From a virus (Duplodnaviria; Heunggongvirae; Uroviricota; Caudoviricetes), in IMG/VR virus record IMGVR_UViG_2698536640_000019, positions 1 to 6,232 of that record: a DNA stretch of 6,232 bases; one strand, given 5' to 3'. Of this stretch, positions 1,683-6,232 are shown one piece after another; the first letter of the stretch is position 1; every line of letters starts with the position of its first letter. The notes below the pieces were generated by a model. That model searched no databases. It was not told where the DNA came from and worked only from the letters and a program-made list of their open reading frames with translations. The position numbers and the translations under genes are program-made.

Positions 1683-1722
1683 GGAATTACCCCTGCTGAT
1701 TAAATTCATTACCTTTAATAAC

Positions 1723-1959
1723 CTAGGAACTCATGTCCATATCTTTCATGAGCGCACTGGCTTTCATTGCCACAAGTTCAGTAAAGTCTCTGCTTTCCGC
1801 GAGCATAACCACCCCAAAAATCATGGCAGGTCCATCACCTTTCTGCTTTATCCCGGTTGAACGTATGTCCAGACTTACCCCCATGCGCACTGTTCCATCC
1901 GCGTTTTTATGGATAACGTGCTCCTTGTATTCGAAAATAATGCGTACAACTTTACTCAT
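1723..1959 (-). CDS. Small hypothetical protein (78 aa), paralogue of the adjacent 97-aa protein
   Basis: The ORF-track frame (1723-2058) is trimmed to the internal ATG at 1959-1957 (MSKVVRIIFEYKEHVIHK...), which has GAGGACCAGAGG immediately upstream as a Shine-Dalgarno sequence. The longer track start would overlap the upstream 210-aa gene. Stop TAG at 1723-1725. Confidence 0.6.
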   Translation of the reverse strand: MSKVVRIIFEYKEHVIHKNADGTVRMGVSLDIRSTGIKQKGDGPAMIFGVVMLAESRDFTELVAMKASALMKDMDMSS

Positions 1960-2033
1960 CCTCTGGTCCTCGTTTTGTTCGGATAACTGACCCGGCGTCT
2001 GACCTGATGACAGAGCCGAACCATGAAGCAACT

Positions 2034-2666
2034 TCATACTTCCCAGTAAACCGTGCATCCGCTTATACGGGTGGCCTTCACACGGCGGCGCAGGCCGTTG
2101 GTCTTAACGGTGATTTCAATTTCACCGGTTCCCTTAACTTCGTTTACCGGCGGCGTGGTTTTCAGTGCAAAACGTTGCGGGTAGCGTTTGCTGCGCTCCA
2201 GTACCGCACCAGCAAGTTCAGTCAGGCGGCGGGCGTTATTCAGTGAATCAAACAAATTCATAGGGAACTCCGGTTGTATCAGTAATGGATTCATGCGCAA
2301 TGCAGCCAGCTCTGACAGGAAGCCTCGATTAACTTTACCCATCCCCGGAATTTTTCGGGTTTCGCCACGCATGATTGCACGAAGAATGGAGTAACCGTGT
2401 CGCCACCCCTGGCGATAATCATCCATAATCAGAAAACCAAAGCGCAGGCTTTCCCATACATCCACATCAAAGCATTCATGATTAAAACGGCGTCTGATGG
2501 AATCAAGTTGCATGTCTGCATACCACTGATACAGGTCTATATACAGAAAACACACACCATCACCGTCCATCAATTCATAGATATAATCACAAACCTCCCC
2601 GTCATCGACGTTAAACTCACGAAAGCTGTGGAGAACATTGATTTCCTGCTGTATCTGCATTTTCAT
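2034..2666 (-). CDS. Hypothetical 210-aa protein with an acidic, Trp/Tyr-rich N-terminal half and a basic, Arg/Lys-rich C-terminal half; function unknown
   Basis: Open reading frame from the ORF track. ATG at 2666-2664 is preceded by GAGAGG and lies 12 nt downstream of the 73-aa gene stop. By manual count the N-terminal 88 residues or so have about 18 Asp/Glu against about 7 basic residues; the C-terminal half has about 22 Arg/Lys against about 11 acidic. The DNA under the N-half looks AT-rich and under the C-half GC-rich. No family recognised. Confidence 0.65.
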   Translation of the reverse strand: MKMQIQQEINVLHSFREFNVDDGEVCDYIYELMDGDGVCFLYIDLYQWYADMQLDSIRRRFNHECFDVDVWESLRFGFLIMDDYRQGWRHGYSILRAIMRGETRKIPGMGKVNRGFLSELAALRMNPLLIQPEFPMNLFDSLNNARRLTELAGAVLERSKRYPQRFALKTTPPVNEVKGTGEIEITVKTNGLRRRVKATRISGCTVYWEV

Positions 2667-2678
2667 ATAACCTCTCGT

Positions 2679-2902: not shown

Positions 2903-3835
2903 TCACACCTGCGAGAGTAATTCAGGGTTGGTATAAACCTCTTTAAAGGCCGCATTAATATGTTTTTCTGTCAGCGCCGCGCCTTCACCGCTGGCGGTGA
3001 GCCACGCCTGGTTAAGCGTATGTGTCAGAACGCGTAACGCTCCCGGCTTTTCAGCGATAGCCTGCATGACGGCCAGCTCGGCCTCACCACTGATTCCCCA
3101 TGCCATGGCAATGGCCAGCACATCCGCCTTTTTGGCCTTGCGAAGTTGTTTTGTACGGGCAAGACGGCTGAACAGGCGCGATAAATCATCAAAGGCGCGG
3201 CGTCCACCTTTAAACAATCCGCGCGGGTTACCAATAAGCACCATCCCGATCCCCGTGGCGTCCTGAATTGCCCGGAGTTGCTCCAGACCGTCAATACCAA
3301 GATGATCCGCCTCATCCACAATCACCAGTCCACGCGTTCCCATCAGGCGACGGCGGATGGCGCGGGATAACGCCCCTTTGTTCGCGCGGGTATAATCAAT
3401 CCCCAGCGCATCGGCCAGCTCCAGCAGACACTCCGTGACGCTGGAATGCGCGGGAGACAGGGTGATCATCCAGGTGTTTGGTTGCTCCTGGCAGTAATTA
3501 CGGGCGGTGGCCGTTTTACCCACCCCGGGCACGCCCACTATGACGTTAATACAGCCCATCAGGCGGACCGCCTGAAACAGTGCGCGCAGCTCCTGGACTG
3601 TCTGTGTTTCCACAAACTGCGGCGGCTCCGGCAGAGAAGGCCGCTTTTTCCAGTCTTTGTACCAGGAGCGCATAGTCGCCGCGATAGCATCATTGTCTCC
3701 TTTATATTTCCCCTTGCGGAAAGCCGATAATGTACCGTCGGAAATTCCCGCCTCTCTGGCGATGACATACTGCGTCAGTACGCCGCCATCAATGAGTTCA
3801 TCAATGGTCTTGATTACATCGTTAATATCGGTCAT
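2903..3835 (-). CDS. B: MuB-like transposition ATPase / target DNA activator
   Basis: 310-aa product. From memory it matches Mu B (about 312 aa) in the motifs LPEPP.FVETQTV, the Walker A region G.PGVGKT, WMIT..P, L.E.DEADHLG, LSRA.RRRL.GT.GLVI.DEADHL, AKKADV.AIA.AW and AEKPGALR.L.H.L. ATG at 3835-3833 is preceded by GAGGT. Confidence 0.9.
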   Translation of the reverse strand: MTDINDVIKTIDELIDGGVLTQYVIAREAGISDGTLSAFRKGKYKGDNDAIAATMRSWYKDWKKRPSLPEPPQFVETQTVQELRALFQAVRLMGCINVIVGVPGVGKTATARNYCQEQPNTWMITLSPAHSSVTECLLELADALGIDYTRANKGALSRAIRRRLMGTRGLVIVDEADHLGIDGLEQLRAIQDATGIGMVLIGNPRGLFKGGRRAFDDLSRLFSRLARTKQLRKAKKADVLAIAMAWGISGEAELAVMQAIAEKPGALRVLTHTLNQAWLTASGEGAALTEKHINAAFKEVYTNPELLSQV

Positions 3836-3911: not shown

Positions 3912-5999
3912 TCAGGCCAGCGGATCACTTTCTTTTAATTTCGCTTCGAGCAGTTGCAATCCCCGCTGGAAATTACGCTCGTATTCTTCGTCAGTTTCAT
4001 CATCAGCGACCGGTTGCTGAACGGTCACCGTATTACCCACAGGGCGGTATATATTTTCCAGCCATGGCTCCTGTGGCTTGTGCTCCAGCACGTTGACAAC
4101 CTCATCCTCGGCATCACGGATTTTTTCCTCTGCGCGTTTACGCATACCTTTAAGGCGCTGCTGCTGTTTGTAGTATTCCGCGCTGACCGGGAAGGCTTCG
4201 CGTTTATTGCCGTCCCATACCGCCTCGCAAATCACGCTGCCATCCTGGCGACGCACGGTAATTCGTTCGGCATCATGAATGTCATAGCTGATAAGCACTT
4301 TGCGGCCATGTTCATCACGCAGCTCGGGCGCGTAGTAAATATTATTCAGCCAGCGTATTTCACAGCGTCTTACAGGGCGTTCCACCATCGGCCGGAACAT
4401 GTCCCGCAATTCCACATCGGACAGCCATTCAATTTCCGTGTCCTCTTCTGCCAGGCGTTTTTTTCTGAACTCCGCCGGGCTGTAATGTTTACCGTTCGGC
4501 TTCATGGGTAATTCATCGTGCGGCCGGTTGTTGTACCACTCAACGCCGTCACGAATGGCATCAATCAGTTCAGACCAGGACGGTAAATCACGCATCGCTG
4601 ACTGCTGCCGGGCGTTCAGCCGCTTGCCCTGTTGCAGGGCAGTGAATGCCGAGCGTAAATCGCGGTTGGTTTTGCGTAACGTCTCGCGATCTGCACCTTT
4701 CCCGAAATAGGTGCGGTATTTACGGGCTATGCGCATCGGTAATGTGCGGTTAAGCCGTTCGATAATGCCCCGTCCCTGCGGATTACCGGCAATCCCGGTC
4801 GGGTGATTAATCCCCAGTCGCGGTAGTATCCCCACAACCTCCTTATCCAGGATGTCGGCGGTTTCCCCGGAGCCATTATCCGAGTAATACAGAAACGGTT
4901 TGCCGTGATGTCGAATACCGTGCTGTATGGCACCGGCTACGGCGAAAACATTTTCAGCCAGGTCAAGGCTCCAGCCCACCACAAAGCGTGTACCGCCATC
5001 GATAACAAAGGTTACTTCCGGTGCAAATGGCCGCCCGTGAACCGGGTGCCTGCATTTCAGCTTCATGCCGTGACCGTCACCAATCCAGACATAGTTCACC
5101 GGCATTCTGGACCAGTCGCGGCGCGTGAATCCCTCAAGCTGGCGGTATTCACTGCCGGTCACCCGGCCTTTTTGTTTCACCACTTCCGGCAGTTTCTTCA
5201 TTGCGCGGCGAATGGTGTCATAAGACGGCATGATATCGAGCATATAAGGCTCATCAGCGTGCCGGTGCTGCCATTCAGCGACAAAATCCTCGTAAGCCTC
5301 GGTCATTGGTCGGCCGTTTGACTGGCGATACTGCGCCAGAAATTCGGGCAGCCAGTTAATATCTTCGGCTTTTATTTCCTGGCGCTTACCAGGTGCCAGC
5401 AAAAGCAGGCGTTCAGCGGCGTTCTGCGCCTTGTTAAAGGCTGCAATCCAGCGTTTCAGCGTGATTTCACTCAACGCGCGGCGGTTTCCCTTTTTGGCGT
5501 TCGCCGTCTCAACCATTGCCACAATGCGCTCGTCCAGTTGTGAACGTGCCAGGTTGTCAACGATAAACCGGATAGCCTTCGCGCAGCTGAAACCGGGTTG
5601 TTGCGCGACTTTCAGCACCTCGCTGACGATCGCGATTCGTGCCTCTGCCACTTTACGTTGGTTTTCAGTCAGGGCATTCAGGCGTTCGACCATCAGTTGT
5701 GGTGATCCGCGATATGCCTCCACCGCATCAACCACGACAGGTGAGCGTCTGGCCTTTGTCACCACCGGAGCCGGTGATTCATCGGCTTTTTGCGTCATCA
5801 GTTGCAGGGCGTAGCGTTCACGTAATGCCTGCTGCGTCACTTCAGGTAAACAGTCGATGCTGTATTCAAAACCTTTAGTGCCTTCCTGGCGGCGTCTGCT
5901 GGTTTCGCTGGTTGCATACTTCCTGATTGAATAGCGGACGCCTTGCTCCGTTCCCGGCATTCCCGGTAATCCAACCAGCTCTTTAACTGAAGCAAACAT
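3912..5999 (-). CDS. A: MuA-like DDE transposase (phage Mu transposase A family)
   Basis: 695-aa product. The N-terminus (VKELVGLPGMPGTEQGV...RRQEGTKGFEYSIDCLPEV) resembles the MuA end/enhancer-binding winged-helix domain. A candidate DDE core is present: WIGDGHG, then YYSDNGSG, then GRGIIERLNRTL. It lies directly downstream of ner (TAA-tt-ATG) and upstream of the B homologue, the canonical Mu order. Confidence 0.92.
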   Translation of the reverse strand: MFASVKELVGLPGMPGTEQGVRYSIRKYATSETSRRRQEGTKGFEYSIDCLPEVTQQALRERYALQLMTQKADESPAPVVTKARRSPVVVDAVEAYRGSPQLMVERLNALTENQRKVAEARIAIVSEVLKVAQQPGFSCAKAIRFIVDNLARSQLDERIVAMVETANAKKGNRRALSEITLKRWIAAFNKAQNAAERLLLLAPGKRQEIKAEDINWLPEFLAQYRQSNGRPMTEAYEDFVAEWQHRHADEPYMLDIMPSYDTIRRAMKKLPEVVKQKGRVTGSEYRQLEGFTRRDWSRMPVNYVWIGDGHGMKLKCRHPVHGRPFAPEVTFVIDGGTRFVVGWSLDLAENVFAVAGAIQHGIRHHGKPFLYYSDNGSGETADILDKEVVGILPRLGINHPTGIAGNPQGRGIIERLNRTLPMRIARKYRTYFGKGADRETLRKTNRDLRSAFTALQQGKRLNARQQSAMRDLPSWSELIDAIRDGVEWYNNRPHDELPMKPNGKHYSPAEFRKKRLAEEDTEIEWLSDVELRDMFRPMVERPVRRCEIRWLNNIYYAPELRDEHGRKVLISYDIHDAERITVRRQDGSVICEAVWDGNKREAFPVSAEYYKQQQRLKGMRKRAEEKIRDAEDEVVNVLEHKPQEPWLENIYRPVGNTVTVQQPVADDETDEEYERNFQRGLQLLEAKLKESDPLA

Positions 6000-6001
6000 A
6001 A

Positions 6002-6232
6002 TTACGCGACCTTACGAATGTAGCGGCTGGGCCAAATCTCCTCGGGTGGCACACCCAGGCATTCCGCAATAATCCCCTCATACTTGGGAACATGACGGTA
6101 TACCGCGTTGTACAGGTTATTCTGACCTACACCAGCTTTACGGGCCAGCGCCCTCATACTTCCTTCTCTGGCTCTGACTTCCCCCAAGATTCTTTGAGGA
6201 TGCCAATCAGGCTTAACTTCATTTCTCGCCAT
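6002..6232 (-). CDS. ner: Ner-like DNA-binding transcriptional regulator (Mu Ner family)
   Basis: 76-aa product. From memory it matches Mu Ner (75 aa) in DWH...I.......S...L.R..G.....L.NA..RH.PK.E.IIA..L...PE.IWPSRY. It lies immediately upstream of the transposase gene. The start codon sits exactly at the right window edge, so its promoter and operators are outside the window. Confidence 0.85.
   Translation of the reverse strand: MARNEVKPDWHPQRILGEVRAREGSMRALARKAGVGQNNLYNAVYRHVPKYEGIIAECLGVPPEEIWPSRYIRKVA

Follow-up and report, generated by a model that had tools for sequence, protein, structure and literature searches.

The 210-aa open reading frame (ORF) at 2034-2666 on the minus strand is very probably an ordinary, natural fusion allele of two Mu-type early genes, one for a gp8/E7-like protein and one for a Mu-type Kil protein, and not a purpose-built two-domain protein. 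The two genes are separate and overlapping in most relatives, and a one-base deletion (of an A) just before the kil start codon joined them in frame. The ORF has an ATG start and is present exactly as a sequence-only reading of the 6,232-nt stretch of DNA analyzed here (the window) had given it; the identical protein is public as P0013. That reading had also proposed a two-module or mosaic protein, which holds insofar as most relatives carry the parts as separate genes and either part is found without the other, although the boundary had been misplaced: it lies between residues 135 and 136 (nt 2261/2262). Searched separately, both parts were found to occur independently in other prophages, and they match two different families (gp8/E7-like and Kil), not a single family over the full length.

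All substantial ORFs of the window lie on the minus strand. Gene order and homology identify the window as early-operon DNA of a Mu-like E. coli prophage, with ner, A, B, small accessory genes, and gam. A Ner-like protein (6002-6232) and a 695-aa Mu-type transposase (A; 3912-5999) are followed by a MuB-type transposition ATPase (2903-3835) with Phage-MuB_C and AAA_22 domains and 47% identity to Mu B, which anchors the locus as a Mu-type early operon. Four small ORFs separate this ATPase from the Gam host-nuclease inhibitor (847-1377; PF07352, E = 2e-39; 55% identity to Mu Gam), which ends the accessory-gene stretch downstream. Among them, a small early gene at 2679-2906 (phrog_3375; called by PGAP at 73 aa) lies between B and the fused ORF as the latter's upstream neighbor, and an ORF at 1389-1709 (phrog_2230; called by PGAP at 97 aa in relatives) is directly upstream of gam. 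Downstream of gam, where Mu has gp11, a 196-aa DUF5420 protein is encoded (184-774; phrog_2260). The 1051 bases around ORF 2034-2666 are 98.4% identical to E. coli chromosomes, and a tblastn search against 50,697 phage records returned as its sole matches two Stx phage records with an inserted Mu-like phage, the corresponding regions of which are 92.8% identical to the window DNA. Taken together, the gene order, the identities to Mu B and Mu Gam, and the DNA matches place ORF 2034-2666 within the accessory ("semi-essential") stretch of a Mu-like early operon. No RNA family in Rfam matched anywhere in the window, and no family matches were obtained for the plus-strand ORFs beneath 2034-2666 (2007-2246, 2188-2394, and 2397-2798) or for a 43-aa alternative-frame ORF on the minus strand (2291-2422).

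The stretch between B and gam is also where Silas et al. (bioRxiv 10.1101/2023.04.06.535777) describe, in the Mu early region, the swapping of cassettes of small, fast-evolving genes. The same work identifies Mu E6/Mup07, from this stretch, as gnarl2, an accessory gene tied to O-antigen or barrier-defense antagonism. Mu gp7/E6 also matches phrog_2230 weakly (E = 0.009), the family to which ORF 1389-1709 belongs, and this ORF may be a gnarl2-like gene. The passages covered of Silas et al. mention neither Mu gp8 nor Mu Kil, and they offer no function transferable to the front part of the fused ORF.

The back part of the ORF (2034-2261), which runs from an internal ATG (2259-2261) to the stop codon (2034-2036), encodes 75 aa. 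Residues 136-210 match the PHROG family phrog_2679, "Kil protein," with E = 1.8e-39 over profile positions 5-79 of 79 (75/79), and phrog_2743, to which Mu Kil itself belongs, with E = 1e-3. Mu Kil in turn matches phrog_2679 (E = 9e-5), and the two families give reciprocal weak profile matches. Direct comparison of Mu Kil with the Kil module gave 36% identity over the last 39 aa by BLASTP, and an E-value of 4e-5 with a probability of 69% over 37 columns by hhalign; a C-terminal motif, G-x2-R-x-V-x3-R-x2-G-C-x3-W, is common to both. The Pfam family Kil_protein (PF26843) is precomputed on all 75-85-aa relatives in E. coli and Salmonella and on P0001, a 96%-identical fused protein, and membership of the window protein was assigned from this annotation of relatives and from the PHROG profile. 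The exact 75-aa Kil protein (P0027) occurs on 105 contigs, and PGAP calls it as a gene of its own in the near-identical genome of strain CP55. These matches indicate that the whole of a Mu-type Kil protein is contained in residues 136-210.

Like Mu Kil (gp5, Mup05; PHROG 2743; PF26843), the Kil module is small and basic (74-76 aa) and its gene lies after B in the early operon, the order in the window being ner-A-B-orf75-ORF210. It differs in that identity (36%) is confined to the last 39 residues, the N-terminal helix region not being alignable, and in that kil is the third gene after B in the window, whereas Mu kil is the first, directly after B. It also differs in being the C-terminal portion of a 210-aa reading frame; the stand-alone size of about 74-85 aa would be obtained only if translation started at 2259-2261. 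When Mu kil is expressed, E. coli cells become spherical and die (Waggoner et al., 1989, cited in PMC3961180), and by homology with Mu Kil the product encoded here would be a host-toxic early protein. The same source describes Mu Kil as unrelated to the Kil proteins of lambda and Rac, with which it shares only a name (PMC3961180).

The front part (residues 1-135; 2262-2666) is preceded by a GAGAGG ribosome-binding site (2671-2676), read from the alignment, 4 nt before the first ATG (2664-2666). Its homologues (P0002-P0011) form a small family of 139-140-aa proteins from E. coli and Shigella that, in the unfused relatives, end in ...QPEFTYEFV. Mu gp8 aligned to the front module with 32% identity over 76 aa by BLASTP and to the family alignment with a probability of 95% (E = 2e-8) by hhalign, in the latter case across residues 1-74 only (74 columns). 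The Mu gp8 family profile (phrog_3690) likewise matched P0011 over residues 1-75 only (E = 4.5e-5), and gave E = 0.09 with P0002, which is 96% identical to the window protein; the C-terminal half of the front module did not align to Mu gp8. On the strength of these comparisons, residues 1-135 are probably distantly homologous to Mu gp8/E7 (Mup08; PHROG 3690). The likeness to Mu gp8 extends to a position in the B-gam stretch, to length (139 aa in Mu, 139-140 aa in the unfused relatives between B and gam), and to an F-[ND]-V-D-x-W-E motif within the first ~75 residues, which align. The differences are that the C-terminal 60 residues of the front module are unalignable, and that the Mu gene comes after kil and is not adjacent to it. 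The links to both Mu Kil and Mu gp8 are thus to be regarded as distant.

Scans of the ORF, its halves, and its neighbors with Pfam (a set without PF26843), NCBIfam, and PADLOC gave no match for the ORF, and searches of PDB sequences with both family profiles yielded nothing meaningful. A front-module profile search of 1.8 billion representative proteins returned 12 matches, five of which are true remote relatives. P0089 (1065 aa) and P0096 (1324 aa), long tandem-repeat proteins with 16 and 7 short matching stretches, respectively, were judged spurious, as repeat or low-complexity artefacts. The front and Kil modules were modeled separately with AlphaFold2. For the front module, a 16-sequence alignment produced a model with a mean pLDDT of 82 and a pTM of 0.73 (pLDDT >90 across most of residues 40-130); the predicted fold is a single compact alpha/beta domain (residues ~25-130) with a floppy N-terminal helix, and no solved structure matched it. 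The Kil model, with a pLDDT of 58, was of too low a quality for a fold search. Estimates of dN/dS were 0.4-0.65 for the front module and ~0.1-0.4 for Kil, which indicates purifying selection, with both kept as coding sequence in general.

In the unfused relatives, a 139-140-aa gene is followed by a 76-aa kil gene, with an overlap of 14 nt and with kil in the +1 frame. PGAP annotates two such genes in OkiPb01677 and 23CRST047 (a 139-aa hypothetical protein and a 76-aa protein, the latter named "Kil protein family" in one record; 14-nt overlap), and more diverged prophages that carry P0010 and P0011 have, likewise overlapping, a 140-aa gene and a 76-aa Kil_protein gene. The unfused alleles of E. 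coli and Shigella Mu-like prophages (WP_170996948.1 and WP_001047891.1 in OkiPb01677) have 96-99% front-module identity to the window, with the same gene order and neighbors; they differ from it by one extra A, which results in two genes, of 139 aa and 76 aa, that share 14 nt. At the unfused junction (GAGTTCACCTATGAATTTGTTTGA), the upstream frame reads ...E F T Y E F V stop and the kil ATG is in the +1 frame. The relatives have TTCACCTATG where the window and four complete genomes have TTCCCTATG, one A being absent between 2265 and 2264 on the minus strand; at this site (2264-2265; alignment column 417) GAGTTC-A-CCTATG in the relatives corresponds to GAGTTCCCTATG in the window. In the window and in strain CP55, the resulting GAGTTC-CCTATG gives the single frame ...Q P E F P M N L F D.... 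In a DNA alignment of nine loci (three fused, six unfused), this one A was the only difference between the fused and unfused junctions, and with its loss kil is brought into frame with the upstream gene.

As this single base is the only cause of the fusion, a base missed in sequencing or assembly at a locus that truly contains two genes has to be weighed; other frameshifted versions of the upstream gene are indeed present in draft assemblies (P0012 and P0088). The deleted A, however, lies outside any homopolymer run (TTCACCT), and an identical 40-nt fused junction is present in four genomes that were finished independently and come from different countries and hosts: CP55 (pig, China), STEC1587, JNEC-KY203, and JNEC-KY176. 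It was also found in further draft assemblies, in which the flanking haplotypes differ. Fused proteins of 209, 210, and 211 aa were found, with different N-termini and Kil variable regions, and in an 86-aa protein on five contigs (P0040) the sequence MNPLLIQPEFPMNLFD shows the fused junction, the protein having been called from an internal Met. The same junction in independent genomes on diverged backgrounds, outside any homopolymer, makes a sequencing artefact very unlikely, and we give this explanation almost no credence. Of the frameshifted versions, P0012 (122 aa) and P0088 (110 aa) are gp8-like alleles disrupted near CAGGGGTGG (window ~2403-2411), by decay or by error in the draft assemblies; P0012 continues into the 43-aa alternative frame that is present in the window (2291-2422, minus strand).

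Of 5426 complete E. coli genomes, 13 contain front-module DNA, in a single copy each, and 232 contain Kil-module DNA, 219 of them without a gp8-like gene. The fused arrangement accounts for four of the 13 complete genomes that carry both parts, and the unfused one for the other nine; it was also found in four draft contigs that are likewise unfused. Stand-alone Kil proteins are 75-85 aa in E. coli and Salmonella, and in two examined prophages without the front gene Kil is 84-85 aa, with a short alternative N-terminus. In all four fused finished genomes the sole PGAP annotation is a 75-76-aa Kil, with nothing called over the front ~400 nt, an annotation gap that is due to the fusion. The unannotated stretch (1863-2279 in locus L001 and 1865-2281 in L006, equivalent to window 2262-2678) is an intact coding sequence.

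The fused junction is found on diverged backgrounds and does not trace a single clone's prophage: the front modules of the window and JNEC-KY176 differ by 28 substitutions, whereas those of the window and the unfused OkiPb01677 differ by three. A difference profile shows a recombination breakpoint near the junction, the window being an almost perfect match to OkiPb01677 up to the junction and then diverging, which points to a breakpoint at the gene boundary between the two. The junction was probably moved among haplotypes by the mosaic recombination that is typical of the region, although recurrent deletion may also be the origin of the junction on several haplotypes. The fused junction may moreover have been kept on several haplotypes by selection, beyond mere tolerance, a matter that the fusion-allele account does not explain. 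The B-to-gam interval is strongly mosaic in general (window 1700-2300 against loci L002, L003, L004, and L005); in some prophages kil is followed by an additional 93-aa gene, named "host nuclease inhibitor protein" in one record, and one prophage has an IS66 element near the interval.

The asymmetry that had drawn attention to the ORF was an acidic N-terminal half and a basic C-terminal half, in step with a shift in DNA composition. The direction of the charge difference is as described, but the reported counts overstate the contrast: residues 1-105 contain 19 acidic and 12 basic residues (pI 4.8), where ~18 and ~7 had been counted, and residues 106-210 contain 9 acidic and 17 basic residues (pI 10.4), where ~11 and ~22 had been counted. 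The half-to-half difference has p ~0.06 in a residue-shuffle test. The enrichment of the N-terminal half in aromatic residues is borne out (17 W/Y/F in residues 1-105, against 7 in residues 106-210). The shift in DNA composition is also real, with GC at 0.427 for 2400-2666 and 0.519 for 2034-2399 (codon-shuffle p 0.03-0.05), but it does not go beyond the rest of the window: 16% of equal-size neighboring segment pairs elsewhere in the 6.2 kb differ in GC as much, so the shift is within what this mosaic region shows throughout. The GC and codon calculation, while it bore out uneven composition, located the shift mostly at codon position 2 (GC2 0.29 against 0.45, and GC3 0.47 against 0.54, for the first and second parts of the ORF), which argues for amino-acid composition more than for a changed DNA background. 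Neither the charge nor the GC asymmetry is statistically striking; both are real and unremarkable.

Charge and composition do switch together, near residue 90 (~nt 2400), but this is ~45 residues upstream of the gene junction. In the structure prediction the front module forms one domain that spans the acid-to-base switch, the junction at residues 135/136 lying outside the switch; the basic residues 85-130 are integral to the predicted domain, and the switch is therefore an intra-domain property. The asymmetry arises because acidic, aromatic-rich residues 1-90 are followed by the basic C-terminal third of the gp8-like domain and then by the basic Kil peptide. This bears on the suggestion of a dedicated two-domain protein in which an acidic, DNA-mimicking module is joined to a basic nucleic-acid-binding module. 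The first 90 residues do have a net charge of -10 and the remainder of the ORF is net positive, as such a protein would have; however, the front module as a whole is only mildly acidic (net -6, pI 5.0), unlike Ocr, ArdA, and similar strongly acidic mimics with a DNA-like surface, and showed no structural similarity to a known mimic, and the back is a Kil-family host-toxicity protein and no known nucleic-acid binder. The suggestion does not stand up to these results, and we regard a protein of that kind as highly improbable.

The comparisons show an ancestral layout of a gp8/E7-like gene of 139-140 aa followed by a 76-aa Mu-type kil, with the kil ATG 14 nt before the upstream stop; loss of the single A just upstream of that ATG then joined gp8-like residues 1-135 to a complete Kil. 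Upon induction, the early operon would be transcribed from a Mu-type early promoter, and ribosomes starting at 2666 would produce a predicted 210-aa gp8-like-Kil hybrid. Ribosomes starting at the internal GGAG-N6-ATG (2259-2261) would instead produce free 75-aa Kil, which, by analogy with Mu Kil, would be a small host-toxic protein that disturbs cell shape. The GGAG Shine-Dalgarno sequence of kil, as read from the sequence (2268-2271), is kept 6 nt before the internal ATG (7 nt in the unfused relatives), and RNA folding around the junction and this GGAG gave no stable structure relative to shuffled sequence (z = 0.65); with the site retained and no masking structure, internal initiation probably still yields free Kil. 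What the fusion would lose is termination-reinitiation coupling to the upstream gene, together with the four C-terminal residues (TYEF-V) of the gp8-like protein.

A different role for the overlap would be that unfused relatives already make a gp8-like-Kil hybrid, by programmed +1 frameshifting within the 14 nt, and that the window allele hard-wires this hybrid. The +1 frame of kil is compatible with such a mechanism, and the overlap ends in TTT GTT TGA, where the stop could pause ribosomes; yet neither a slippery site nor a stimulatory element was found at the overlap, the upstream frame having no recognized slippery motif (X-XXY-YYZ) and the RNA no stimulatory structure (z = 0.65). Start/stop overlaps of 4-14 nt are, moreover, a common arrangement for translational coupling in phage operons. 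Programmed frameshifting is accordingly a most implausible account of the unfused loci.

The gp8-like protein and Kil might also be functional or physical partners (e.g., a toxin and a protein that modulates or neutralizes it, or members of a complex), in which case the fusion would be a "Rosetta-stone" allele that is tolerated or favored because the two would bind each other in any case. Consistent with this, the gp8-like gene, where present, is directly upstream of kil with a 14-nt overlap (seven unfused annotated or called loci), and in all 13 complete genomes the front gene and kil fall in a single covering stretch. Phage Mu carries both families (gp8 and Kil), the fused junction persists on several diverged backgrounds, and the order of an acidic protein and then a small, basic, toxic peptide is reminiscent of antidote-toxin pairs. 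Against this, Kil occurs without a gp8-like gene in 219 of the 232 complete E. coli genomes, which indicates that Kil needs no partner; in Mu, gp8 and kil are not adjacent and their order is reversed; and mosaic recombination near the junction can account for its spread without selection. We therefore regard a partnership as unlikely, though less so than the other alternatives to a simple fusion allele, and it is equally doubtful that the recurrent natural fusion reports an interaction between the gp8/E7-like protein and Kil.

The fusion-allele reading matters mostly for annotation: deletion of one base, which unites two Mu early genes of known kinds, accounts for the two-faced 210-aa protein, and there is therefore no reason to follow it up as a novel domain architecture or a DNA mimic. 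The family of gp8/E7-like proteins is very small and has a confidently predicted fold with no solved match, and in the loci examined its gene always immediately precedes kil and overlaps it by 14 nt; together with the natural fusion, this makes for a cheap test of a functional gp8-Kil link. Should the gp8/E7-like protein and Kil prove to be partners, this would offer a first functional entry point to Mu gp8/E7 and to the target pathway of Mu-type Kil.
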